Positions 6,347 to 18,864 of a stretch of 24,000 nucleotides of DNA are shown here, piece after piece (the first letter of the stretch is position 1; each line of letters opens with the position of its first letter). The stretch is from Phycisphaerales bacterium (GTDB lineage: Bacteria > Planctomycetota > Phycisphaerae > Phycisphaerales > UBA1924). Location: NCBI GenBank assembly GCA_022843565.1, contig JALHNK010000037.1, positions 179 through 24,178 of the forward strand. The letters run 5' to 3'. The position numbers were made by a program, and so were the translations under genes. The notes below the pieces were generated by a model that was given only the letters and a program-made list of their open reading frames with translations, ran no database searches and was not told the DNA's origin.

Positions 6347-6960
6347 GCGACGCGCCCAAGCCAAAGAAGACCGCGAGCGTGAAGAAGCCGAAGCCCGGCA
6401 GCACGGCCGAAGCCGACGGCTCCCTCCTGCCCGCGCCACCCGCCGAATCCAAAGGATCGCACTCGCACGGCACAGTCGCAATGCCAGCATCCGCCCCACG
6501 CGTGCAGTTGTTCACCGACGGTGCCTGCTCCGGCAACCCCGGCCCCGGCGGCTGGGCGTACATCCTGAAGCACCCCGCCAGCGGCAAAGTCCGCAAAGAC
6601 GCCGGGGGCCAGCCACAGACTACGAACAACCAGATGGAACTCACCGGCGCGATCATGGGCCTCAAAGCCCTCACGCGCCCCAGCGTCGTCGAGCTCTACA
6701 GCGACTCCGAATACGTCCTGAAAGGTCTGCGCGAGTGGGTCGCCGGCTGGAAGAAGCGCGGCTGGAAAACCGCCGCGAAACAACCCGTGAAAAACCGCGA
6801 GCTCTGGGAAGAGCTCGACACCCTCCGCAGTGGCCACACCGTGACCATGCACTGGGTCCGCGGGCACGATGGCCACCCGGAAAACGAAGAGTGCGACCAG
6901 ATGGCGGTGCGGGCCGCTCGCCTCGCAGCGGGAAAACCTGATCCCGCGCCGGGCGGATAA
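6343..6960 (+). CDS. rnhA: Ribonuclease HI with a basic Lys/Pro-rich N-terminal extension
   Basis: The catalytic blocks are FTDGAC, NNQMELTG, LYSDSEYV and WVRGHDGHPENEECDQMA (DEDD plus His). The ATG at 6343 overlaps the upstream stop (ATGA, 6343-6346). An internal ATG at 6481 would give a canonical-length enzyme. GC3 bias continues through 6343-6480, which favours the long form. Confidence 0.9.
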   Translation: MSDAPKPKKTASVKKPKPGSTAEADGSLLPAPPAESKGSHSHGTVAMPASAPRVQLFTDGACSGNPGPGGWAYILKHPASGKVRKDAGGQPQTTNNQMELTGAIMGLKALTRPSVVELYSDSEYVLKGLREWVAGWKKRGWKTAAKQPVKNRELWEELDTLRSGHTVTMHWVRGHDGHPENEECDQMAVRAARLAAGKPDPAPGG

Positions 6961-7150
6961 GTGGCATCGACAAAATCCGGCCCAGCCGCAGGAACGAAGG
7001 CCCATTGAAGGCTCTTCGCCAGCGATGTCACCCCCAGAGTGACCCGGCATCGAACACATGGCGACGTGACGTGTGAGGGACTTCCAAGCCCCCTCATCGC
7101 CTACGCCGCCCGTCCCGTCCTGTGTTCGCTGCCTCACTCGCACCGCTGAC

Positions 7151-8404
7151 ATGTGGAGCCTCACCATGCAACTGATTCAGATCAATCGCGTCCGCCCGAT
7201 CGTCTTCTCAAGTCTGATTGCCCTGACGCTCGCCGCCGGGCTCACGCGCCCCTCGTTCGGCGCACCAGAAGACGGCGCAGCGCCCTCAGCCAACACTCCC
7301 GCCGCGAGCGCACCGACCCGCAACATCGCCAAGTGGAATCTCGACTCCGACGAGAAGCTCGGCGTCAGCGGCTTCGACCCGGTGGCCTACTTCCCCGAAG
7401 GCGGCGGCAAGCCGGTCAAGGGCGACAAGAAGTTCGAGGCCGCCGTCGGCGGCGTGAAGTACCACTTCTCCAGCGCAAAGAACCGCGACGCTTTCAAGGC
7501 CAACCCCACCAAATACGAACCCGCCTACGGCGGCTGGTGCGCCTGGGCGGTGCGTGATGGCGAGCAGGTCGAGGTTGATCCCAAGAGCTTCATCGTTCAC
7601 GACAATCGCCTGTTCCTCTTCTACGACGGCTTCTTCGGCGATACCCGCTCCAAATGGGTCAAGCTGAACCACGCTCAGGAAGAAGCCAAGGCCAACACGC
7701 AGTGGAAGAAGATCAGCGGCGAGAACGCCCCGATGCCGATGACCAACCAGCCCGCCGCCACCGGCACGCTCAAAGCCAAGCTCGACGCGGCCTCCGCCAA
7801 GTACGCCGCGAAGATCACGCCCGAGCAAGCCGCCGCTCAGAAACGCGGCATCGAAGAAGTCCGCGCCAGCCTCGCATCGACCAAGCGTCTCGGCGTCGGC
7901 GACTCTGCGCCGAGCTTTGAACTGCCCGATGCCACTGGCAAGCCCGCGTCGCTCAAGTCCATGCTCGCTCAAGGCCCGGTCGTCGTCACGTTCTATCGCG
8001 GCGGTTGGTGCCCGTACTGCAACATCCAGCTTCGCGAGTATCAGCAGGTTCTCCCGGAGATCAAGGCGATGGGCGCACAGCTCGTGGCGATCTCGCCCGA
8101 GAAGCCCGATCAGTCGCTCTCAACTGCCGAGAAGAACTCGCTGGAGTTCAGCGTTCTCTCAGATGCCGGCAGCAAAGCCGCCGCGATGTTCGGCATCGCG
8201 TACGAGCTCACCCCGAGCATCGCGCCGATGGCCCCGATGATCAAGCAGCACAACGCCGAGGGGACGATGCTCCCGCTCAGCGCGACATACGTCATCAACC
8301 GCGACGGCAAGATCGCCTACGCCTTCGTGAACGAGGACTACCGCGTGCGTGCCGAGCCCGCCGAGATCATGGCGGCGCTCGGGTCGCTCCCTTCAGTCAA
8401 GTGA
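7151..8404 (+). CDS. Exported fusion protein: YHS-like domain plus a peroxiredoxin-like/thioredoxin-fold domain with a CPYC motif
   Basis: ORF 7073-8404. I prefer the ATG at 7151 or 7166, followed by a signal peptide (IVFSSLIALTLAAGLTRPSFGA). The N-terminal domain reads GFDPVAYFPEGGGKPVKGDKKFEAAVGGVKYHFSSAKNRDAFKANPTKYEPAYGGWCAWAV. The C-terminal domain reads FELPDATGKPASLKSML..GPVVVTFYRGGWCPYCNIQLREYQ (CPYC at 8009-8020), typical of AhpC/TSA PRX-like2 proteins. Confidence 0.8.
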   Translation: MWSLTMQLIQINRVRPIVFSSLIALTLAAGLTRPSFGAPEDGAAPSANTPAASAPTRNIAKWNLDSDEKLGVSGFDPVAYFPEGGGKPVKGDKKFEAAVGGVKYHFSSAKNRDAFKANPTKYEPAYGGWCAWAVRDGEQVEVDPKSFIVHDNRLFLFYDGFFGDTRSKWVKLNHAQEEAKANTQWKKISGENAPMPMTNQPAATGTLKAKLDAASAKYAAKITPEQAAAQKRGIEEVRASLASTKRLGVGDSAPSFELPDATGKPASLKSMLAQGPVVVTFYRGGWCPYCNIQLREYQQVLPEIKAMGAQLVAISPEKPDQSLSTAEKNSLEFSVLSDAGSKAAAMFGIAYELTPSIAPMAPMIKQHNAEGTMLPLSATYVINRDGKIAYAFVNEDYRVRAEPAEIMAALGSLPSVK

Positions 8405-8513
8405 CGTCCAACCGTTTCCGTCTCGCGCGAATCGCTCCGCGTTCGCCCGGTCTCTCGCCTTGTCCCGCCGGTCTCCACACGCTTCTCATGCATCCGTCTC
8501 AAAGAGACTCCCC

Positions 8514-9023
8514 ATGAACTCCATCGCCGCAACCATGCCCGCGTCCCGCCCGTCATTCATCTCGACGATCGCCCCCCGATGCACCAACCTCTCGATGCCC
8601 GCCAAGGTCGGTGCCTGGGTACTCCAGATCACCGCCGCGGCCATCCTCGGCCAGACCCTCTTCTTCAAGTTCACCGCCGCGCCCGAGCCGGTCTACATCT
8701 TCACGACGCTCGGTGCCGAACCTTGGGGCCGCATCGGCTCCGGTGTTGCCGAGTTGGTCACGGTGCTCTTGCTGCTCACGCCCCGCACCGCGGTGCTCGG
8801 CGCGCTCCTGGCGCTGGGCACCATGGCCGGTGCCATCGCCTCCCACCTTGGCCCCCTGGGCATCGTCATCACCGTCAACGGAGAGAGCGACGGCGGCACG
8901 CTCTTCGGCCTTGCTCTCGGGGTGACTGTCGCCGCAATCGGCGTGCTTGTGCTCCGTCGCTCGCAATTGCTCGCCATGCTCTCGGGCCTGCGCAGCTTTG
9001 CGCTGGCCCGTCCACGTCACTAA
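8514..9023 (+). CDS. DoxX-family integral membrane protein
   Basis: ORF 8349-9023, with candidate starts at 8514, 8535 and 8595 (the last gives about 142 aa, a typical DoxX length). The pattern LGQTLFFKFTAA...FTTLGAEPWGRIGSGVAELVTVLLLLTP...LGTMAGAIASHL matches the DoxX-like layout of four TM helices. Confidence 0.7.
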   Translation: MNSIAATMPASRPSFISTIAPRCTNLSMPAKVGAWVLQITAAAILGQTLFFKFTAAPEPVYIFTTLGAEPWGRIGSGVAELVTVLLLLTPRTAVLGALLALGTMAGAIASHLGPLGIVITVNGESDGGTLFGLALGVTVAAIGVLVLRRSQLLAMLSGLRSFALARPRH

Positions 9024-9087
9024 ATGTTCCTCCCCGGCATCCAATCCCCGGTATCGAATCGAACGTCACCCGGATACTCATCGGCGC

Positions 9088-9699
9088 ATGTCTGATTTTT
9101 CAACAGCCGCGGATCCAACGCTCCTGGACGAACTTCGTCAAGGGTCACCACGCGCGCAAGAGCGGTTCGTTCACGGCGTCGGCCCAACGCTTCTCGCAGT
9201 CGCGCGCCGAATGCTCTCCCGTGAAGAAGACGCCCGCGACGCGGTGCAAGACGCGTTCCTCAGCGCCTTCAAGTCTCTTCACACCTTCGACGGCCGATCG
9301 CAGCTCTCGACATGGATCCACCGCATCCTGATCAACGTCTGCCTCATGAAGCTCCGCTCGCGGAAGCGACGCCCCGAGCGCCCGATCTCTGACTTCCTGC
9401 CGACATACGTCGAAGACGGGCACCAGACCGTCCCGACTCCCAAGTGGCCCGGCATTGATCGCGACGAACCAACACTGCCGGGCAAGCTGAGCGAGCAGGT
9501 TCGAGCACAGTTCGAGCAGCTTCCTGAATCGCATCGCGTGGTCATCATGCTGCGAGACATCGAGGGGCTCAGCACGGAAGAGACCGCCGCGGCCCTTGAG
9601 ATCACCACCGACGCCGTCAAGATCCGACTCCATCGCGCCCGGCAGGCACTGCGGGCGCTCCTGGAACCAATCGTCCTCGCAGAACGGGAATCCGACTGA
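9088..9699 (+). CDS. ECF-type RNA polymerase sigma-70 family factor
   Basis: ORF 8947-9699. I prefer the ATG at 9088 (MSDFSTAADPTLLDELRQG). Region 2 reads DAVQDAFLSAFKSLHTFDGRSQLSTWIHRILINVCLMKLR. Region 4 reads LPESHRVVIMLRDIEGLSTEETAAALEITTDAVKIRLHRARQALR. Confidence 0.9.
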   Translation: MSDFSTAADPTLLDELRQGSPRAQERFVHGVGPTLLAVARRMLSREEDARDAVQDAFLSAFKSLHTFDGRSQLSTWIHRILINVCLMKLRSRKRRPERPISDFLPTYVEDGHQTVPTPKWPGIDRDEPTLPGKLSEQVRAQFEQLPESHRVVIMLRDIEGLSTEETAAALEITTDAVKIRLHRARQALRALLEPIVLAERESD

Positions 9700-10016
9700 T
9701 GTTCAACCCAAGCACATTCAAATCAGGGCCCGACGGCATCACCTGCCGCGACGTGATCGAGACGCTGATGGCGTACATCGATGGCGAGCTCTCGCCGCAC
9801 GATCGCGCCGAGATCGAGAAGCACCTGAGCATCTGCCGCTCCTGCGTGAACTATCTCGAGAGCTATCGCGCCTCGGTCCGCGCCGCGGCTGAGGCCATGC
9901 GGTCACACTCGCCGCCGACGCCCATGCCCGACGACCTCGTGCGAGCGATCCTCAAAGCCCGGAACACGTTCGATCGTCCGGATGCGAGTTCACCAAATGC
10001 GCCACCGACCCCGTAA
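9699..10016 (+). CDS. Soluble zinc-binding (ZAS, HxxxCxxC) anti-sigma factor
   Basis: The start ATG shares one nucleotide with the sigma gene stop (TGATG, 9697-9701). The motif CRDVIETLMAYIDGELSPHDRAEIEKHLSICRSC gives C16-x25-H42-x3-C46-x2-C49. The 105-aa product has no hydrophobic helix. Confidence 0.8.
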   Translation: MFNPSTFKSGPDGITCRDVIETLMAYIDGELSPHDRAEIEKHLSICRSCVNYLESYRASVRAAAEAMRSHSPPTPMPDDLVRAILKARNTFDRPDASSPNAPPTP

Positions 10017-10064
10017 CGCGCTCCGACGCGTCATCCCCGATCAGCACCGCTCACCTCGTTTACC

Positions 10065-10355
10065 GTGACCATCGACACCGTCAACGTCATCACGCTGCTC
10101 GTTTCGCTGTACGCCGTGATCGGTGTCGCAGTGGGCGTTGCCTTTGTCATGCGCGTGGTGAATCGTGTTGACTCCAGCGCGACCGGTGCCGGTCTCATGT
10201 TCCGATTGACAATCCTCCCAGCCGCCGCGGCGCTCTGGCCGGTGACACTTCGGCTCGTGGCCCGCGCGAGCGCCAGCCCCGCGCCCCACGCTGTCGCCGG
10301 TCAGGAGCACGGCACCGTCCGCCCAGCCGCCCAAGACACCGGGGGCACACGATGA
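10065..10355 (+). CDS. Small hypothetical membrane protein (96 aa, two predicted TM helices)
   Basis: GTG start with no obvious SD. It has GC3 bias and hydrophobic segments (VITLLVSLYAVIGVAVGVAFVM, MFRLTILPAAAALWPVTLRLV). The stop overlaps the next start (ATGA). Confidence 0.45.
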   Translation: MTIDTVNVITLLVSLYAVIGVAVGVAFVMRVVNRVDSSATGAGLMFRLTILPAAAALWPVTLRLVARASASPAPHAVAGQEHGTVRPAAQDTGGTR

Positions 10356-10543
10356 CGCGCCGCCAGCGCCTCGCCCACCTTGTGTTCTGGATCGTCACGC
10401 CGATGATCGTGGCCGCGATCATCCTCATCGCGTGGCAACATCGCGACCGGCTCGCCAATCGCCTGAGCGAACCCGCGCCGACCACGGCCCCGAGCTCGCC
10501 ATCGCCGCCCGCCGCCCCTCCCGCCACCGGAGGCCGCCCATGA
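10352..10543 (+). CDS. Small hypothetical membrane protein (63 aa, one TM helix, Pro/Ala-rich tail)
   Basis: There are ATGA overlaps at both ends (10352-10355 and 10540-10543). The TM helix is LVFWIVTPMIVAAIILIAW. A GGGGG run lies upstream of the start. Confidence 0.45.
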   Translation: MTRRQRLAHLVFWIVTPMIVAAIILIAWQHRDRLANRLSEPAPTTAPSSPSPPAAPPATGGRP

Positions 10544-11610
10544 GCCTCGGCTATCGCGCCATCCAGTGGAGCCGCCCAAAGGTCCTCTACGACCTCAGCG
10601 CCGCCGCCTGTGTCGTGGCCTTCCTCGGCACCTACATCATCGCAACCCGTCTGTCACTCGACGCATCACACGCCCCCAGCGACGAAATCCTCGCCATCTC
10701 AGCCCTCGGCGCCTGCGCCGTCACGCTCCTGCACATCGTCCTTGCGATCGGCCCGCTGGCACGCCTGACCCCGCGCATGAGCCCGATCCTCTTCAACCGG
10801 CGCCACCTCGGCGTCCTGACGTTCTTGGTTTCCCTTGCGCACGCCCTCCTGGCGTTCGGCTACTACCACGGCTTCGGTGTGGTCTCACCACTTCGTTCGT
10901 TCCTCACGAGCAATACCAACTTCGGCGAAGTCGGAGCGTTCCCCTTTGAGCTCCTGGGGGCCGCCGCTCTGGTGATCCTGTTCCTCCTGGCCGCCACGAG
11001 CCACGACTTCTGGCTCAAGAACCTCAGCGCGAAATCGTGGAAGCGGCTGCACTTCGGCGTCTACATCGCCTACGCCCTCGTCATGGCCCACGTGGCGCTC
11101 GGCGCGATGCAGGATCGCGCAGGGCCGATCTCCCCGCTGCTCATGCTCGTCGGCGCCGTCGTGTTGTCCTCGCTCCACATCGCAGCCGGACTTCGCGAAC
11201 ACTCGCGAGATCGACGTCTCAGCCGTCCCAAACAGTCCGACGATGGATGGATCGACGCCGGGCCCGCATCGTCCATCCCGCTCGATCGCGCCCGCGTCAT
11301 CGACACACCGGCCGGTGAGCGACTCGCAGTCTTCCGACACGCTGGCGGCGTCTCCTGCGTCACCAACGTCTGCGCGCACCAGGGCGGACCGCTCGGCGAG
11401 GGACGCGTCGTCGACGGCTGCATCACCTGCCCTTGGCACGGCTGGCAATATCGCCCAGAAAACGGCCGCGCCCCCGCTCCGTTCACTGAGAAGATCCCGA
11501 CGCATCAGGTTCGCATCGTCGCCGGGCGCGTCCTCGTCAATCCCGCTGCGCTGCCGCCGGGAACTCCCGTCACGCCCGCGTTGATCACGGGGGGAGCGGA
11601 CCATGTCTGA
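10540..11610 (+). CDS. Ferric-reductase-type (haem b) six-TM domain fused to a C-terminal Rieske [2Fe-2S] domain
   Basis: ORF 10432-11610. I prefer the ATG at 10540, with GGAGG at 10529-10533 and an ATGA overlap. His pairs occur in RRHLGVLTFLVSLAH (H-x11-H) and RLHFGVYIAYALVMAH (H-x12-H), inside predicted TM3 and TM5. The Rieske box is CAHQGGPLGEGRVVDGCITCPWHGWQY (CxH-x16-CxxH). Confidence 0.8.
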   Translation: MSLGYRAIQWSRPKVLYDLSAAACVVAFLGTYIIATRLSLDASHAPSDEILAISALGACAVTLLHIVLAIGPLARLTPRMSPILFNRRHLGVLTFLVSLAHALLAFGYYHGFGVVSPLRSFLTSNTNFGEVGAFPFELLGAAALVILFLLAATSHDFWLKNLSAKSWKRLHFGVYIAYALVMAHVALGAMQDRAGPISPLLMLVGAVVLSSLHIAAGLREHSRDRRLSRPKQSDDGWIDAGPASSIPLDRARVIDTPAGERLAVFRHAGGVSCVTNVCAHQGGPLGEGRVVDGCITCPWHGWQYRPENGRAPAPFTEKIPTHQVRIVAGRVLVNPAALPPGTPVTPALITGGADHV

Positions 11611-12385
11611 CCTCAACCCGCGCGAGCCCGCCGTCCCGTTCTATGTGAACTACCTGCCGCTGCACCCGGTGCTGCGCCGCTCGATGCTGGCTTTCCTTGG
11701 CTCTGCGCTTGGCCTGGCGATCTGCGTCGCAAGCGTCTGGTCGATGAACCGCGCCGACCCCGGAAGCGCGACGTGGGATGACGGTCGCTCGCGAACCTTC
11801 TCGGGCGTTCTGATCCCCGGGCCGTATCCGATGCTCCTTACGACCGACCCGCAAACCGGGCTCGATCGCACCATGCTCCTGGTCGAAGTCGGCAAGCGCG
11901 GCGTGCAATCCCGCTTCAACGAAACAGCCCCGCGCCACATCGAGCTTTCCGGCTGGCTGCTCACCAGAGATGATCGCACGATGCTCGAACTCGAACCCGA
12001 GCAGACCGTACGGAGCTCCACGCAGCCCCAACCGCCCATCGACATTGGCCGCGTCAGCGAGCGCCCCGGCTCGCCGGAGATCGTTCAACTCCGCGGCGAG
12101 ATCGTCGATTCAAAGTGCTACTTCGGTGCCATGAAGCCCGGATCCGGCAAAGCCCACAAGGCCTGCGCCACACTTTGCGTTCGTGGCGGCATCGCCCCCG
12201 TCCTCGTGGTCACCTCGCCCGGCAACGGCCCCCGCGCGTACTTGATCCGCGGCTCAAGCGCTGGCGCGCTGCCGCAACTCGTCGAGCACCTGATCGCCGA
12301 TCCCGTCGAAGTCACGGGCGAGCACACCATCCTCGGTGATCTGCACATCCTGACAATCTCCGCTGGCAACGCGCGGAGGCTCTAG
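11603..12385 (+). CDS. Hypothetical membrane-anchored protein with a C-x15-C-x3-C motif
   Basis: The ATG at 11603 overlaps the upstream gene by 8 nt, with GGGGAGCGGA upstream. There is a single N-terminal TM helix (MLAFLGSALGLAICVASVW). The C-terminal part contains DSKCYFGAMKPGSGKAHKACATLCVRGGIAP. I recognise no family. Confidence 0.6.
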   Translation: MSDLNPREPAVPFYVNYLPLHPVLRRSMLAFLGSALGLAICVASVWSMNRADPGSATWDDGRSRTFSGVLIPGPYPMLLTTDPQTGLDRTMLLVEVGKRGVQSRFNETAPRHIELSGWLLTRDDRTMLELEPEQTVRSSTQPQPPIDIGRVSERPGSPEIVQLRGEIVDSKCYFGAMKPGSGKAHKACATLCVRGGIAPVLVVTSPGNGPRAYLIRGSSAGALPQLVEHLIADPVEVTGEHTILGDLHILTISAGNARRL

Positions 12386-12433
12386 AACACCCGGGCGACC
12401 CACAGACTGCCTCATTCGTTCGCTGATTCAACC

Positions 12434-13069
12434 ATGAACACCTCCGCCCCAACGTCCGTGTCATCGCTCCGCTCCGGTGAGTTTCCCTCCGCCCGAAACG
12501 GCGCCCAAGCCCCGACACACCCGACGCCCTGCCCACGCCCGAGCCCGGTCGTTGAGCTCACCTCCGCCATCAACGTCGTGCTGCGCGAGCTCCACGCGAT
12601 GATCAACACGATCTCCGACGAGAGCTACACCCAGCGCTCGTCCGCCCAGTTCATGCACGCGACCATCGGCGGGCACGTGCGCCACTCGATTGATCACCTC
12701 GCCGCGCTCGCCGATGGAATCGCCACCGGCGTCGTCGCCTACGACCGGCGCGCCCGCGGCACACCCGTCGAGACCGATCGCAACGCCGCCGCCATCGAGC
12801 TCGCCCGCCTCGCGACCGCCTTCGAATCGCTCGGCGAAGTCGATCCCGCTCACCCGCTCACGATCGAAGTGATGGCCACGCGCTCCGGCACCTTTCAGGC
12901 GGTGACATCAACGCTCGCCAGAGAGCTGGCGTTCGTACTCAGCCACACCGTTCATCACCAAGCCACGCTGCGCGGCATGGTTGTCGCCTGCGGCGTGACC
13001 GTTCCGGAGAACTTCGGTTTCGCAAACGCCACCATCGCCCAGAAGGACGCCGGCCCGTGTGTACGCTGA
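12434..13069 (+). CDS. DinB-superfamily protein (metal-dependent four-helix bundle)
   Basis: The His motifs are GGHVRHSIDHLAAL and LSHTVHHQATLRGM, with a helix-rich sequence between them. The N-terminal 40 aa are low-complexity. Confidence 0.7.
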   Translation: MNTSAPTSVSSLRSGEFPSARNGAQAPTHPTPCPRPSPVVELTSAINVVLRELHAMINTISDESYTQRSSAQFMHATIGGHVRHSIDHLAALADGIATGVVAYDRRARGTPVETDRNAAAIELARLATAFESLGEVDPAHPLTIEVMATRSGTFQAVTSTLARELAFVLSHTVHHQATLRGMVVACGVTVPENFGFANATIAQKDAGPCVR

Positions 13070-13887
13070 CGATCATGCGGACGCGCGGCACGCCCACGGC
13101 CGCTCCGGCCTCATCGCCCGGAGCGCTGGTGATGCGAATGGTCATGAATCGCGACGAGCAGCGATCCCGACCGCCGGGCATCGGTCCTCGCGTTGTTCTG
13201 TGCGGACATCGCAGCGCGATCATGCCCATCGACCCCGTCTCCGGCGGGAGCTGGGTGGGCTGCAACGATCGCGCCGTCGTCGTCGCACTCCTGAACGCGA
13301 CAAGCACACCGCCGCGCTCGGGCGTTCCCGTCGCCACAGGCACACCGACACGCTCGCGCGGCGTGATCGTGCCCATGCTGCTGGCGGCCGCGAACCTGCA
13401 CGAGGCGCTCGACATCGCCACATCGCTCGAGCCCCAGGAGTTCCCCGCCTTCCGTGTCCTGATCGCCGTTGCCACGCGATGCGTCGTCCTTCACGCCGAT
13501 GGCCGCTCGATCAGCGTCCATCGCACGAGCGATCTCAGCAGACCGGTGATGCTGACGAGCTCAGGCCTCGGCGATGAGCTCGTCCAAGCCCCGCGCGGGC
13601 GCGAGTTCGAACGGGCGTTCGCAGCAGCGATGTCACCGAACACTGCCACGTCGCTGCACGCAAACCTCGCGGCGCAAGACGCGTTTCACATGCTGACGGA
13701 TCCACATTACCCCGAGCTGGCAGTCTGCATGGCCCGCGCCGACGCCCGCACCGTGAGCGTCACGACGCTCGATGTCTTCGAGGACCGGGCGGAGATGACG
13801 TGTCAGCCGCTGCGCGACGACCTGACTCGGGACGGCAGGCCGCAGCCCGCCAACATCCAGTTCACGCCTCACGAGGCGATTCGATGA
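13057..13887 (+). CDS. NRDE-family (TANGO2-like) protein
   Basis: A GTG start gives MCTLTI (Cys2). The family signature is VMNRDEQRSRP, followed by DPVSGGSWVGCNDRAVVVALLN and TRSRGVIV blocks. It overlaps the DinB gene by 13 nt, and its stop overlaps the next start (ATGA, 13884-13887). Confidence 0.75.
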   Translation: MCTLTIMRTRGTPTAAPASSPGALVMRMVMNRDEQRSRPPGIGPRVVLCGHRSAIMPIDPVSGGSWVGCNDRAVVVALLNATSTPPRSGVPVATGTPTRSRGVIVPMLLAAANLHEALDIATSLEPQEFPAFRVLIAVATRCVVLHADGRSISVHRTSDLSRPVMLTSSGLGDELVQAPRGREFERAFAAAMSPNTATSLHANLAAQDAFHMLTDPHYPELAVCMARADARTVSVTTLDVFEDRAEMTCQPLRDDLTRDGRPQPANIQFTPHEAIR

Positions 13888-14978
13888 TCGCCTCCTCGAC
13901 GATGTCGCCGTCGGAGCTGCGACGACTCCGCTTCGCTGCGTGGCTCGGGCGCTGGCAACGCTGGGAGTTCTGGTCCGCGTGGTGGGTCTACGCGCCGCTC
14001 GTGCCTTGGATCGTCTGGTACGCGATCAAGTCACGCCGCCCGATGGGCTTCACCGCCGTCAATCCGGCGATCCCCGCCGGCGGTGCCGTGGGCGAATCCA
14101 AGTCCCAGATCCTCGCGGCTCTGCCGAGCGATCGCGTGCTGAAGTACGAACTGCTCGCGCCCGGCCCGATCGACGCGCGATTGGCGACACTCGACGCCTT
14201 CATGGCCCGCGTCCGCACCACGTGGCCCATCATCCTCAAGCCCGACATCGGCGAGCGCGGCACCGGCGTGCGACGCATCCCAAACCCACCCGCCGCCCGC
14301 GCGTACCTTGAACGCTTCACATCCAACGTCATCGCTCAGGTCTATCACCCAGGCCCGCGCGAGGTTGGCGTCTTCTACGCGCGCGTCCCTGGCGAGACCC
14401 GCGGGCGAATCCTCGGCGTCACCGCCAAGCACTTCCCACGCGTCATCGGTGACGGTCGCTCCAGCGCTCGCGAGTTGATCTGGCGACATCCGCGCCTGCG
14501 GTTTCAGGCCGCGGTGTTCCTGGATCGCCTGGGCGCCGACGCAGATCGCCGCCTCGGCGCCGAAGAATCGCTCCAGTTGGGGGTGATTGGCAACCACTGC
14601 CGGGGCACGATGTTCACCGATGCGCCGGAGCTGGCGACCGAGGCTCTGGCGCGTGCACTGGACGAAATCACCGCCGAATCGGCTGGAATTGAGTTCGGTC
14701 GCTTTGACCTCCGCTACGCCGACGACGAAGAGCTTCGGCAAGGGCGAGGGTTCGCGGTCGTCGAGTTTAACGGTGTCTTCGCAGAAAACACCAGCATCTA
14801 TGACCCCAATTGTGCATTCTGGAAAGGTCAGCGGAAGCTGCGAGAGCAATGGAAGCTCGCGTGCGAGATCGGGGCCCGACGCGTGGGCGCAGGCTCGCGG
14901 GCGACGGGTCCGATCCAGTTGCTCAGAATGGTCTTCGCCCACCGGCGTCGGGCCGGGGCAGGAGAAGGTTCAGATTAA
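13884..14978 (+). CDS. ATP-grasp family ligase with a hydrophobic Trp-rich N-terminal segment
   Basis: ORF 13800-14978. I prefer the ATG at 13884 (ATGA coupling). The N-terminal segment reads WEFWSAWWVYAPLVPWIVWYAI. ATP-grasp-like blocks are WPIILKPDIGERGTGVRRI, VIAQVYHPGPREVGVFYAR and EFGRFDLRY...FAVVEFNGVFAENTSIYDP. Confidence 0.7.
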   Translation: MIASSTMSPSELRRLRFAAWLGRWQRWEFWSAWWVYAPLVPWIVWYAIKSRRPMGFTAVNPAIPAGGAVGESKSQILAALPSDRVLKYELLAPGPIDARLATLDAFMARVRTTWPIILKPDIGERGTGVRRIPNPPAARAYLERFTSNVIAQVYHPGPREVGVFYARVPGETRGRILGVTAKHFPRVIGDGRSSARELIWRHPRLRFQAAVFLDRLGADADRRLGAEESLQLGVIGNHCRGTMFTDAPELATEALARALDEITAESAGIEFGRFDLRYADDEELRQGRGFAVVEFNGVFAENTSIYDPNCAFWKGQRKLREQWKLACEIGARRVGAGSRATGPIQLLRMVFAHRRRAGAGEGSD

Positions 14979-15053
14979 GGGTTCGCGGTCGCGGAGCGGC
15001 CGGGGCCCATAGAGTTTGGGTCAGCCGGTTCACACCCTTCTGCGAGAGCAAGC

Positions 15054-16910
15054 ATGAGCGACCGCAGCACACTCGAAACGACCAGCCCCACCCCCCCGGG
15101 CCACACGCGGATCTCCGTGCAGACCATCTCGGCTCAGGGAATGGCGTCGCCGTTCTCGCCGCTGGTGGGGTATTCGCTGGATCACCTGCTCAAGCTGGAC
15201 GGAATGCAAAGCCTTTACGACGACGCGCTGGATCAGCAGGCCGAGTCGTTCGCCGGGCGGGTGCTCAAGTCGCTGGCGATTCGTTCGGATGTCACAGAGT
15301 CAGACCTCCGCCGTATCCCCGCAACCGGGCCGACGATTTTCGTCGCGAATCACCCGCTGGGAGGGATCGACGGGCTGATGTTCCTCGAGCTGATCTCGCG
15401 GGCGCGGCCCGACGTCAAGCTGCTGGCCAACTCCTATCTCTCGATCATCCCCGAGCTTTCGAAAGACATCATCAAGGTCGATGTCTTCTCTGGCGACCAT
15501 GCCATCAACACCACCGCGATCCGGGCCTGCGTCCGCTGGCTCAAGGGTGGCGGTTGCCTCGCGAGTTTCCCGGCCGGCGAGGTTTCTCGGCTGCGCTTGC
15601 GTGAGGGTTCGGTCAGCGACGGGCCCTGGGCGGCCTCGGTAGCGATGCTCGCGCGGATGACCGGTGCCCAGGTTGTCCCAGTCTACTTTGACGCCCGAAA
15701 CAGTTGGATCTTCCAGGCCCTGGGGCTGGTCCACCCGCTGCTGCGCACGGCGCTGCTGCCCCGCGAGATGCTGTGGAAGCGCGGCGCGAGCATTCGCGTG
15801 CGCGTCGGGCGGGCGGTCGCGGCCGAGCGGTTGGTTCGGTTTGAGTGCGACGCCGACGCCGCGTCGTATCTGCGGGCGCGGACGTACTTGATGTCGGACG
15901 CGGCGCCGAAGCAATCCAAGGTCCGCGTTCAGGCCGAGATCGCGCCAGAGACTGCGACGGAGCTGCTGCAGAAGGACGTGGACGCTCTGCCAGCGGATCG
16001 CGCGCTGGCATCGATCGGCACGATGCGCGTGATCATCGCCGATGCGCACGAGCTGCCGCATGTCTTGCCGGAGATCTGCCGCCTGCGTGAGATCTCGTTC
16101 CGCGATGCGGGCGAGGGCACGGGCAAGTCGATGGACACCGATGAGTTTGACCGCACGTACAAGCACCTGTTTGTCTGGGACGACACGAAGCGAACGATCG
16201 TCGGCGCGTATCGGCTCGGCCTCACCGATAAGCTCATCGCCCGCAGCGGCGTCGCGGGGCTCTACACGTCGACGCTCTTCAGGTACGACGAGGCGCAGCT
16301 CAAGCTGCTGACGCCGGGGATCGAACTGGGCCGCTCGTTCGTGCGGAAGGAAAGCCAGAACGACTTTGCGTCGCTGCTGCTGCTCTGGCAGGGGATCGGG
16401 CACTTTGCGGTGGCCAACCCGCAGTACCGGATGCTCTTTGGAACGGTGAGCATCTCCGATGACTACCCGTCGCTGTGCCGCAAGCTGCTGGTGAACTTTG
16501 TGAACGAGACGGTGGGCGCGGGTGACTTCAAGGGGCTGGCGAGCCCGACGAGCCCGCCGCGGTTCGGAAGGTTTCGGCAGCGCGAGACGGACCTGGCATC
16601 GCAAACGATCGACAACCTCGACGACGCGGACCAGCTCGTCGCGTCGATCGACCCCAACGGCCGCGGCGTGCCGGTGCTGCTCCGCCAATACCTTGCGCTC
16701 GGCGCGAAGCTCGTGGGCTTCAACGTGGACTCGGCCTTCGGCGATGCGCTGGACGGCCTGATCGTCGTGGACCTGGCCAAGGCACCGGCGCGGCGCGTCG
16801 CTCGCTACATGAGCGTGAAGGGTCACGCCGAGTTCCTGCGCTACCACGGCATCGCACCCACGCCGGGCGGCTCGGCGATGCGCGCGGCGAAGCAGAAGCT
16901 CGAAGGCTGA
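15054..16910 (+). CDS. Bifunctional acyltransferase: N-terminal PlsC-like lysolipid acyltransferase domain plus C-terminal OlsB-like GNAT N-acyltransferase domain (OlsF-like aminolipid synthase candidate)
   Basis: The N-terminal half has FVANHPLGGIDG (His/Asp catalytic box) and FPAGEVSR. The C-terminal half has LREISFRDAGEGTGKSMDTDEFDRTYKHLFVWDDTKRTIVGAYRLG and GVPVLLRQYLALGAKLVGFNVDSAFGDALDGLIVVDL, typical of the OlsB/hemolysin-like N-acyltransferase family. Confidence 0.8.
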   Translation: MSDRSTLETTSPTPPGHTRISVQTISAQGMASPFSPLVGYSLDHLLKLDGMQSLYDDALDQQAESFAGRVLKSLAIRSDVTESDLRRIPATGPTIFVANHPLGGIDGLMFLELISRARPDVKLLANSYLSIIPELSKDIIKVDVFSGDHAINTTAIRACVRWLKGGGCLASFPAGEVSRLRLREGSVSDGPWAASVAMLARMTGAQVVPVYFDARNSWIFQALGLVHPLLRTALLPREMLWKRGASIRVRVGRAVAAERLVRFECDADAASYLRARTYLMSDAAPKQSKVRVQAEIAPETATELLQKDVDALPADRALASIGTMRVIIADAHELPHVLPEICRLREISFRDAGEGTGKSMDTDEFDRTYKHLFVWDDTKRTIVGAYRLGLTDKLIARSGVAGLYTSTLFRYDEAQLKLLTPGIELGRSFVRKESQNDFASLLLLWQGIGHFAVANPQYRMLFGTVSISDDYPSLCRKLLVNFVNETVGAGDFKGLASPTSPPRFGRFRQRETDLASQTIDNLDDADQLVASIDPNGRGVPVLLRQYLALGAKLVGFNVDSAFGDALDGLIVVDLAKAPARRVARYMSVKGHAEFLRYHGIAPTPGGSAMRAAKQKLEG

Positions 16911-17877: not shown

Positions 17878-18864
17878 ATGAAATCACTGAAGACGATCGT
17901 GTGCGGAGGCCTCATCGCGGCGGCTCTCGCCTTGGGCGGGTGCGGCGCTTCCGGGCGCAGCGCCATCGACGACGGCGCACCGCCGGCCCTTCTCTCTGTG
18001 CAAGACGCTCGGCGCGTCGCGATCTTTGATGAGCGGGGAGAGCAGGTCACATGGGAACGCCTCCTCAGCGACGCGGCCGCCGCCGACGCGGTGATCCTCG
18101 GCGAGCAGCACGGGCACGAACTGGGGCTGTCGGCCGCCGCGGCTTTGTGGCGTGATCTGATCGCACGGGGCGGCGTCCCCGGCGATGGCAGAGCCAGCGC
18201 GTTTCGCGGGGCGCTCGCGCTTGAGTTCATCGAGCGCGACGACCAATCACGCCTGGACGACTTCCTCGCGGGGCTCAGCGATGAACCGACATTCATCCGA
18301 CGCGCGGGGCGTTCGAGTGATGGGCCGACTGGTGGCAACTGGAGCGCCGGCCATCGCGACATGGTTCTGGCGGCCAAGGACGCGGGCAGGCCGGTCATTG
18401 CCGCGAACTCGCCCCGCCCGTACGTGCGCCTCGCCAGAACCAAGGGCTTCGAGGCGCTGCGGGAGCTCACCGACGACCAGCGGCGGCTGTTCGTTGAGCC
18501 GCGTGAAATGCCGACGGGCCGGTATCGCGAGGAGTTTGAGAAACTGATGGGCGCTGGCGGCGAGGGTGTCACGGATGCGAAACGCTCGAACATCGACGGG
18601 CTCTTTCGTGCGCAGAGCGTCTGGGACTGGACCATGGCGTCGAGCATGAACGACGCCATCAACCGCGGCCACCGGCCGACGGTGCTTGTCGTCGGTCAGT
18701 TTCACAGCGACTTCCGAGGTGGCCTCGTTCAAGCCCTGGACATCATCCGCCCGGGGCGCCGCATCGTGACCGTGAGCTTTCAGAGCGAGGTGTCACGTTC
18801 CGCGACAAGTCTGCCGTCGGATCACGTTGGGCGCGCTTCGTTCGTCGTGGGCACGGGGGAGTGA
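17878..18864 (+). CDS. ChaN-family (Tiki/haem-binding uptake superfamily) lipoprotein
   Basis: The signal peptide has a lipobox-like LALGGC. Conserved blocks are AVILGEQHGHELG, VIAANSPRPYVRLA, RAQSVWDWTMASSM and LVVGQFHSDFRGG. Confidence 0.75.
   Translation: MKSLKTIVCGGLIAAALALGGCGASGRSAIDDGAPPALLSVQDARRVAIFDERGEQVTWERLLSDAAAADAVILGEQHGHELGLSAAAALWRDLIARGGVPGDGRASAFRGALALEFIERDDQSRLDDFLAGLSDEPTFIRRAGRSSDGPTGGNWSAGHRDMVLAAKDAGRPVIAANSPRPYVRLARTKGFEALRELTDDQRRLFVEPREMPTGRYREEFEKLMGAGGEGVTDAKRSNIDGLFRAQSVWDWTMASSMNDAINRGHRPTVLVVGQFHSDFRGGLVQALDIIRPGRRIVTVSFQSEVSRSATSLPSDHVGRASFVVGTGE

Follow-up and report, generated by a model that had tools for sequence, protein, structure and literature searches.

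In a 24,000-nt stretch of DNA from a Phycisphaerales bacterium (assembly GCA_022843565.1, contig JALHNK010000037.1), hereafter the window, four overlapping genes (ORF1 to ORF4) form a cassette around a fusion of a ferric reductase domain (FRD) with a Rieske domain. Judged by its conservation, the cassette is a real, widespread and uncharacterised variant of MsrQ/NOX-type transmembrane electron transfer. We lean towards a reading in which ORF1–ORF4 form one membrane complex that exports single electrons from a cytoplasmic donor, through the Rieske centre, the haems and ORF4, to a substrate in the envelope. The domain fusion itself was already catalogued in 2013, and its partners and proposed function are new.

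The genes were read from a six-frame list of open reading frames (ORFs) and the raw sequence. All positions are in window numbering, and the four ORFs are co-directional:

10065–10355, + strand: ORF1, 96 amino acids (aa), GTG start, two predicted transmembrane (TM) helices
10352–10543, + strand: ORF2, 63 aa, ATG start, one predicted TM helix
10540–11610, + strand: ORF3, 356 aa, ATG at 10540, FRD::Rieske fusion
11603–12385, + strand: ORF4, 260 aa, ATG start, membrane-anchored

The overlaps on which the first-pass annotation of this DNA based its coupled gene chain are all present in the sequence. ATGA at 10352–10355 combines the ORF1 stop with the ORF2 start, ATGA at 10540–10543 combines the ORF2 stop with the ORF3 start, and ORF3 and ORF4 overlap by 8 nt (11603–11610), with the ORF3 TGA at 11608–11610 and the ORF4 ATG at 11603. 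The gap of 48 nt that it had placed before the chain is likewise found, between the stop of an anti-sigma gene (10016) and the ORF1 GTG (10065). Long ORFs on the minus strand (10885–11616, 11585–12088 and 12118–12369) oppose ORF3 and ORF4 and also cluster across loci; they look like shadows of the conserved sense genes, not genes.

ORF3 has more than 7800 relatives, and with a single genome taken for each species the ORF3 alignment finds at least 574 genome loci, the best 80 of which make up our synteny set. In 77 of these 80 loci, ORF4 is the next gene downstream of the fusion (tblastn). The three misses are two contig ends and one locus, L070, with a different gene at that place. ORF1 is found upstream of the fusion in 60 of the 80 loci by tblastn, and in 70 loci and the window by clustering. 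The overall similarity of ORF2 is too low for tblastn, which detects it in 1/80 loci; by a strict pattern of motif and TM helix, at least 53 loci and the window have an ORF2-type gene in the position that separates ORF1 from the fusion. The junction of ORF3 and ORF4 could be scored in 48 loci. All 48 have an ORF4 start at a distance of −14 to +15 nt from the stop of ORF3, the overlap being 8 nt as in the window in 15 loci and 4 nt in 17. According to our own reading of the phyla, the 80 loci are distributed as follows:

Planctomycetota: 27 loci
Alphaproteobacteria and other Pseudomonadota: 22 loci
Acidobacteriota: 16 loci
Bacteroidota: 9 loci
Gemmatimonadota: 3 loci
Balneolaceae: 2 loci
Myxococcota: 1 locus

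Cultured carriers include Flagellimonas flava DSM 22638, F. aquimarina and Spongiimicrobium salis. In relatives from seven phyla, the order of the four genes is retained. Because homologues keep the same order across genome loci, ORF1–ORF4 are on this evidence real genes, not chance ORFs in G+C-rich DNA, and the conservation data exclude a chance or non-functional arrangement of the cassette.

ORF3 holds both recognisable domains of the cassette. Residues 57–181 match Pfam Ferric_reduct (PF01794; 47.6 bits, cut-off 28, E 2e-12), and residues 237–312 match Pfam Rieske (PF00355; 55.1 bits, cut-off 20.3, E 7e-15). No FAD-binding, flavin or NAD(P)H domain is found in ORF3 with Pfam and NCBIfam, and only Rieske families match residues 237–334; the NCBIfam matches, to Rieske ferredoxins such as AndAb, NirD and HcaC, are below threshold. 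The earlier proposal that a Rieske centre takes the place of the flavin/NAD(P)H module is thus in agreement with the hidden Markov models (HMMs). In an AlphaFold2 (AF2) model built from 25 homologues, with a predicted local distance difference test score (pLDDT) of 82.5, TM helices span residues 12–39, 48–76, 87–110, 136–152, 173–191 and 197–226 and are followed by a beta domain. The pair H89-x11-H101 is on helix 87–110 (TM3), the pair H171-x12-H184 is on helix 173–191 (TM5), and the C-terminal box reads C278-A-H280-x16-C297-P-W-H300. Sequence and model therefore bear out the six helices, the histidine pairs in TM3 and TM5 and the CAH-x16-CPWH box described before. The features of ORF3 are:

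10708–11082, + strand: FRD core (aa 57–181), the stretch matched by Pfam
Codons 10804–10806 and 11050–11052, + strand: conserved histidines H89/H171, proposed cytoplasm-proximal haem ligands
Codons 10840–10842 and 11089–11091, + strand: conserved histidines H101/H184, proposed periplasm-proximal haem ligands
11248–11538, + strand: Rieske domain (aa 237–333), with ligand codons 11371–11379 and 11428–11439

By analogy with NOX and FRE proteins (Zhang 2013, PMC3591440), the four histidines would pair into two haems. Each of the four is kept in 76–77 of 79 sequences from seven phyla, and the Rieske ligands C278, H280, C297 and H300 are kept in all 79.

The beta domain superimposes on carbazole and naphthalene dioxygenase ferredoxins with a target-normalised TM-score of 0.84–0.88 and a root-mean-square deviation of ~2 Å (Foldseek). 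The top 50 Foldseek matches all come from the Rieske domain, and the FRD part has no structural match among those; the FRD assignment is based on Pfam and NCBIfam together with the helix and histidine pattern. Structure prediction and Foldseek together give ORF3 six TM helices and a Rieske-ferredoxin fold. Its Rieske motifs are CAHQGG and CPWHGW, without the disulfide cysteines of bc1-type Rieske proteins, and therefore a low-potential centre of the ferredoxin type is expected. A high-potential centre of the bc1/b6f type was rejected, as ORF3 has neither the CTHLGC...CPCHGS cysteines nor an N-terminal twin-arginine translocation (Tat) motif. The extracytoplasmic location of bc1/b6f-type Rieske proteins was rejected as well, as the ORF3 Rieske domain follows TM6 on the positive-inside, cytoplasmic side. 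Segments rich in Arg and Lys are the N-terminus, 77–88, 153–172 and 217–235 (after TM6), and because of these the N-terminus and the Rieske domain of ORF3 are predicted to be cytoplasmic.

Comparison with known systems places ORF3 between several of them. Like NOX and the long-form FRE proteins (SpNOX), it has a six-TM FRD, four TM3/TM5 histidines that suit a stack of two b haems, and, joined to the end of TM6, a module for electron input on the cytoplasmic side. Unlike them, it would take its input from a one-electron Rieske domain and not from FAD and NADPH domains, its TM3 histidines are spaced by x11, and its cassette has a dedicated periplasmic partner, whereas the only known acceptor of NOX/FRE is O2. 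Like MsrQ (YedZ), it is an FRD membrane protein, predicted to bind haem b, that would send electrons outward to a periplasmic partner encoded by a neighbouring gene. Residues 31–214 align to the MsrQ model NF003831 (E 9e-16) with 58 bits against an equivalog cut-off of 130. All four proposed haem-ligand histidines are present in ORF3; in proteins of the YedZ type, the TM3 histidine on the cytoplasmic side is missing (Zhang 2013, PMC3591440). Its input is the fused Rieske domain, not flavin, quinone or Fre; its partner is a TM-anchored Cys3His beta-barrel protein, not the molybdoenzyme MsrP; and the cassette has two extra small subunits. No molybdopterin oxidoreductase (Oxidored_molyb) domain is present in the 33 window ORFs scanned. 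An identity as MsrPQ was therefore rejected, on the MsrQ score below cut-off, the lack of MsrP, ORF4 as the downstream gene and four instead of three haem histidines. The first-pass annotation had drawn an analogy with MsrQ–MsrP, and it holds for the shared logic of a conduit with a periplasmic partner, though membership in MsrPQ fails.

Three further comparisons concern the fusion. FRD::Rieske is listed as architecture 'M4' among bacterial FRD extensions, without function or partners (Zhang et al. 2013, PMC3591440). The same paper gives M4 without operon or distribution and calls such bacterial extensions generally not persistent; unlike that entry, the ORF3 family spans seven phyla with a fixed four-gene order. 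The Rieske ferredoxins CarAc, NdoA and BphA3 have the closest sequences and folds to residues 237–333 and share the CxH...CxxH ligands. Dioxygenase ferredoxins are soluble and shuttle electrons from a flavoprotein reductase to an oxygenase, whereas the Rieske domain of ORF3 is fixed to a membrane domain predicted to hold haem, and no oxygenase is present. MamZ, whose FRD works with a partner redox protein in magnetosome iron redox control (PMC3847676), aligns to ORF3 in its FRD part (E 5e-12) with 45 bits against a cut-off of 650. The MamZ–MamX pair differs in that MamZ is an MFS::FRD protein and MamX a c-type magnetochrome, with no Rieske domain and no ORF4-like protein. Our literature search on FRD+Rieske, DUF5818 and the neighbourhood genes returned a single relevant paper, Zhang et al. 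2013 (PMC3591440). Beyond that catalogue entry, the search found no characterised system of such composition, in line with what had been stated earlier.

ORF4 is the candidate partner outside the membrane. Its N-terminal part carries a conserved FYV(G/N)YLP motif, and its AF2 model (pLDDT 85) shows one TM helix (aa 22–48, nt 11666–11746) followed by two OB-like (oligonucleotide/oligosaccharide-binding) beta-barrel domains. The C-x15-C-x3-C motif that had been pointed out in this protein is found as C172-x15-C188-x3-C192, and it is part of a longer family signature:

12095–12199, + strand: GEIVDSKC-x4-M-x-P-x5-H-x2-C-x3-C-x2-GGI(A/P)P, with C172, M177, H185, C188 and C192

D169, C172, M177, P179, H185, C188 and C192 are kept in all 75 sequences compared across phyla. 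In the model, the second barrel holds the signature on an inserted loop and helix, with H185, C188 and C192 on helix 183–194 and C172 on a short helix (170–174). The signature is a candidate metal or redox site.

The protein also stays outside known families, as had been supposed. It has no Pfam or NCBIfam family match, and profile searches and Foldseek are uninformative. Foldseek returns only tandem-OB proteins (SSB, HIN) with a query-normalised TM-score of ~0.2, which indicates the fold class of the model and not homology. When PDB sequences were searched with the ORF4 profile, nothing matched except a viral core protein and a designed repeat protein, each over brief segments of low complexity, and the matches were discarded as spurious. 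DUF5818 (PF19135) was also rejected: the window protein does not match it, and 10 of 30 relatives match over ~25 residues in the first barrel, the best at 27.1 bits against a cut-off of 27. A family search gave 389 relatives, all 'hypothetical' and mostly from Phycisphaerales. Searched against 1.84 billion representative proteins, the profile found 2637 relatives, with 1219 representative clusters at E<=1e-30, none of which carries an annotation. The C-terminal domain alone gave 479 matches, all 'hypothetical', with no informative fusions. Short matches that resembled a stand-alone C-terminal domain were resolved as a remnant in locus L081 and a split gene in locus L083. In L083 (5541–6447), ORF4 is present as two genes (157 and 148 aa) downstream of an otherwise intact cassette, either through a frameshift or through a genuine split between the barrels. 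What is left in L081 (5784–6350) is an ORF1-like N-terminus and the Cys/His barrel from the C-terminus of ORF4; the central part of the cassette has been lost, and this is a decayed cassette remnant.

The positive-inside count orients ORF4 with its N-terminus in and C-terminus out in 58 sequences, against 9 with the opposite orientation. The beta-barrels are thus predicted to be periplasmic, on the side of the outer haem and not on the opposite side. Export through the Tat pathway was rejected: where the window protein has RR, its relatives have LA, KS, LT, KA or other pairs. As the twin arginine is not conserved, ORF4 is not a Tat substrate and would not carry a cytoplasmically assembled iron–sulfur (FeS) cluster outward. 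Among the top 150 ORF4 representatives are four natural ORF3::ORF4 fusions of 600–629 aa with Ferric_reduct, Rieske and ORF4 parts (P0363, P0373, P0416 and P0450), which differ in their linker sequences. With the Rieske domain cytoplasmic, the TM helix of ORF4 has to carry the chain outside in these fusions, in agreement with the positive-inside count. The fusions argue for a physical partnership of ORF3 and ORF4.

ORF4 might instead serve only structure or assembly, as p22phox does for NOX2, with its Cys/His site holding zinc or a disulfide and with O2 or quinone as the acceptor; the complex would then be an oxidase of the NOX kind with Rieske input, or would connect to the quinone pool. Between them, ORF1, ORF2 and ORF4 contribute four further TM helices, in which they resemble p22phox, and Cys3His sites are often structural zinc sites. 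In addition, a recent paper reports a ubiquinone cofactor in MsrQ (PMC12525009). However, a subunit for assembly only would have no need of its two periplasmic domains, both conserved, or of seven residues that are clustered in one motif and invariant throughout the seven phyla, and the cassette is kept as a unit with ORF4 (77/80 loci), even fused to it. We consider a purely structural ORF4 the least probable of the explanations weighed here.

ORF1 and ORF2, both without a Pfam or NCBIfam match, are conserved and are probable accessory membrane subunits. The ORF1 family carries the motif Y..G..F...F..G..R.D......FRLLILPG..ALWP.LL.RW. ORF2 proteins share the N-terminal motif M-x-R-x-x-R-R-x-H-x3-W-x-x-L..P, followed by one TM helix and a variable C-terminal tail. 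In Acidobacteriota and Bacteroidota an extra domain of ~110 aa, without Pfam match, follows the helix, for example in these homologues:

L028, 1565–2029: ORF2 homologue with the added domain
L050, 5594–6010: ORF2 homologue with the added domain
L045, 5613–5990: ORF2 homologue with the added domain

The export that we favour would proceed as follows. The cytoplasmic Rieske [2Fe-2S] centre of ORF3 would accept electrons from a cytoplasmic donor and pass them to the inner b haem (H89/H171) and from there to the outer b haem (H101/H184). The outer haem would reduce the periplasmic part of TM-anchored ORF4, through a contact that the fusions suggest. The invariant Cys3-His(-Met) site of ORF4 may bind a metal or may itself be redox-active, and ORF4 would hand the reducing power to an envelope substrate. 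ORF1, with two TM helices, and ORF2, with one and a conserved histidine at the inner face, would be accessory membrane subunits.

Candidates for the cytoplasmic partner are encoded near the cassette in other lineages. In 18 of the 80 loci, the 6-kb flanks contain a gene for Rieske fused to a glutamate synthase-type flavin mononucleotide (FMN) domain (Rieske+Glu_synthase), a gene for Rieske fused to a thiamine pyrophosphate (TPP) enzyme, or both. Counted separately, 12 loci have Rieske+Glu_synthase at no more than 6 kb from the cassette, and 13 have Rieske with a three-domain TPP enzyme. These loci belong to Alphaproteobacteria, Flavobacteriaceae, Balneolaceae and some others. Such Rieske+FMN/TPP fusion enzymes are:

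L058, 529–2202 and 3478–5430
L078, 2354–4123
L060, 1867–5628
L013, 1828–5513

In the three loci inspected (L058, L060 and L078), the fusion enzyme is directly upstream of ORF1; in L078, the last 4 nt of the Rieske+Glu_synthase gene are shared with the start of ORF1. In L070, an alphaproteobacterial locus, a 361-aa Rieske+NADPH-dependent FMN reductase (FMN_red; 7073–8158, + strand) directly follows the FRD::Rieske gene in place of ORF4. The cassette remnant of L081 still adjoins a Rieske+Glu_synthase gene. In Flagellimonas flava, the cassette is part of a 13-gene co-directional array that comprises a Rieske-GltS-like gene, a Na+/H+ exchanger, a Rieske-TPP gene, ORF1–4, YHS, LysE, DinB, TANGO2, an ATP-grasp-like gene and one unknown. 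No function was found for the Rieske+Glu_synthase or Rieske+TPP fusion enzymes. Three types of Rieske-flavoenzyme beside a Rieske-tagged conduit suggest cytoplasmic Rieske-to-Rieske transfer, and these enzymes may donate electrons to the Rieske domain of ORF3 or accept them from it. Under outward flow, they would be the likely donors in these lineages.

The same enzymes would also suit an inward flow, in which ORF4 takes electrons from a periplasmic reductant and the haems and Rieske centre feed cytoplasmic Rieske-flavoenzymes such as the GltS-like FMN protein. The direction is not set by sequence. Glutamate-synthase-type FMN domains normally consume electrons from an FeS centre, the Rieske+Glu_synthase gene is near the cassette in the 12 loci above, and L081 retains it beside its decayed remnant. 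On the other hand, the FRD systems characterised so far (NOX, FRE, STEAP and MsrQ) all move electrons outward, according to the FRD catalogue (Zhang 2013, PMC3591440) and the MsrQ literature. A low-potential Rieske centre with NOX-type haems suits outward flow from strong cytoplasmic reductants, such as TPP-dependent 2-oxoacid oxidation or an NADPH:FMN reductase, and no periplasmic dehydrogenase or cytochrome c recurs near the cassette. We therefore regard inward flow as distinctly unlikely.

The recurrence of further genes places the cassette in a larger conserved neighbourhood, beyond the four genes that the first-pass annotation had grouped. In the window, the genes of this neighbourhood and those next to it are:

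7073–8404, + strand: YHS (seleno)protein and thioredoxin-fold gene, NCBIfam NF041384 (E 1e-32), Pfam AhpC-TSA and YHS
8514–9023, + strand: DoxX-like membrane protein, Pfam DoxX_2 (E 4e-5, 24.0 bits, below the 26.3 cut-off)
9088–9699, + strand: extracytoplasmic function (ECF) sigma factor, Pfam Sigma70_r2, r4_2 and Sigma70_ECF
9699–10016, + strand: soluble anti-sigma factor, zf-HC2 H-x3-C-x2-C, no TM helix, Pfam zf-HC2 (E 1.5e-12)
12434–13069, + strand: DinB-like gene, Pfam DinB matches below threshold
13057–13887, + strand: TANGO2-family gene, Pfam match
13800–14978, + strand: ATP-grasp-like gene, no Pfam match, homologues near the cassette in 19/80 loci
15054–16910, + strand: acyltransferase+GNAT (OlsF-like) gene

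The product of 7073–8404, whose true start is probably near 7151, has a hydrophobic N-terminal segment (an apparent signal peptide), a YHS domain whose GGWCAW motif includes a site that is either Cys or selenocysteine (Sec) among relatives, and an AhpC/TSA-like thioredoxin-fold domain with WCPYC. The YHS part recurs at most 6 kb from the cassette in 15 of the 80 loci, in other phyla as a stand-alone gene of ~150 aa. DoxX-like homologues are within 6 kb in 13/80 loci. DinB-like genes (25/80 loci), TANGO2 genes (21/80) and the ATP-grasp-like homologues are within 6 kb of the cassette in several phyla, and the DinB-like and TANGO2 genes overlap by 13 nt in the window. The GNAT-like gene recurs in 12 loci, mostly Acidobacteriota. 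A ChaN/Tiki-type haem-binding protein (17878–18864, + strand; Cofac_haem_bdg, E 4e-36) is encoded 5.5 kb downstream, and no link of it to the cassette was established.

The neighbours bear on a specific version of outward flow, with a metal as the substrate. On the model of FRE and STEAP, Fe(III) or Cu(II) on the outside would be reduced by the outer haem, and the metal would be bound by ORF4, its Cys3-His-Met site on the OB-like barrel holding the ion before or after reduction. The invariant Cys, His and Met of ORF4 are typical soft-metal ligands, and the YHS domain, which recurs beside the cassette, is a putative metal-binding domain. A small OB-like barrel is likewise seen in CusF, which carries Cu(I) in the periplasm. 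Ferric and cupric reductases are among the relatives of the FRD (Zhang 2013, PMC3591440), and the FRD part of MamZ, against which ORF3 scores, is linked to iron redox control (PMC3847676). However, genes for metal transporters, siderophores or copper resistance do not recur around the cassette, the recurrent DinB, DoxX, TANGO2 and thioredoxin-fold neighbours indicate redox stress over metal uptake, and ORF4 has no sequence or fold match to a known metallochaperone. A role in metal reduction or handling is thus unlikely, though it deserves more weight than inward flow or a structural ORF4.

The sigma and anti-sigma genes upstream of the cassette form an ECF pair with a zinc-binding anti-sigma factor (ZAS): sigma70 regions 2 and 4 are present in the one, and zf-HC2 with H-x3-C-x2-C in the other. 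Against RsrA the anti-sigma factor scores 35.7 bits, below the equivalog cut-off of 62.5. By analogy, this suggests a cytoplasmic redox or electrophile signal. The 48-nt gap before ORF1 has no terminator-like site and no promoter-like site occurs anywhere in 6900–15200, scans for sigma-70 promoters and terminators being at background. Therefore, co-transcription of the cassette with the pair is plausible. A shared ECF promoter motif was also sought, and nothing convincing was found upstream of the sigma gene in six Phycisphaerales sequences. A close sigma homologue (>45% identity) together with a ZAS homologue is found in five Phycisphaerales loci, upstream and on the same strand in four. Distant ECF sigma relatives occur in few loci of other phyla, mostly at other positions. 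In the source genome, the cassette probably continues from the sigma/anti-sigma pair and would be a stress-induced system for envelope reduction.

Several points weigh against export of electrons to an envelope substrate as we propose it. The direction of flow is not fixed by sequence, and the GltS-like FMN enzyme fits equally well as an acceptor. Thiol chemistry is not usually supplied by a haem, which gives one electron at a time. Without a Tat motif, the Cys3His site of ORF4 could be a structural zinc site or a disulfide. The ORF3::ORF4 fusions could in principle be frameshift artefacts, the two genes overlapping. The window genome has no Rieske-flavoenzyme within 24 kb, and the link to the sigma/anti-sigma pair is detected only in Phycisphaerales loci (5/80).

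A more ambitious form of the export reading makes the cassette a third route of envelope reductant, beside the DsbD/CcdA thiol relays and MsrQ, which leads from Rieske-flavoenzymes through the Rieske centre, the haems and ORF4 to envelope proteins under stress. Its donors would be a TPP-dependent 2-oxoacid oxidase, a GltS-like FMN enzyme or an NADPH:FMN reductase. ORF4 would be a new class of periplasmic Cys3-His metalloprotein, and it would serve the co-located YHS Cys/Sec and thioredoxin-fold proteins in oxidative or electrophile stress. We put this form forward tentatively, and as rather doubtful in full.

To our knowledge, FRD proteins (NOX, FRE, STEAP and MsrQ) are the main known devices that move single electrons outward across membranes, and among the bacterial FRD systems we know of only MsrQ with a defined partner. 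If the reading that we favour is true, the cassette is a second partnered bacterial FRD system, with Rieske input in place of flavin, a new periplasmic acceptor fold and motif, and two new small subunits; three of its four proteins would define new families. It is a testable, widespread unknown and requires no break with known principles. Its substrate could give a function to the recurrent YHS/DoxX/DinB/TANGO2 neighbourhood, and could explain the supply of envelope reductant in many non-model bacteria, among them Planctomycetota, Acidobacteriota, marine Flavobacteriaceae and Hyphomonadaceae.

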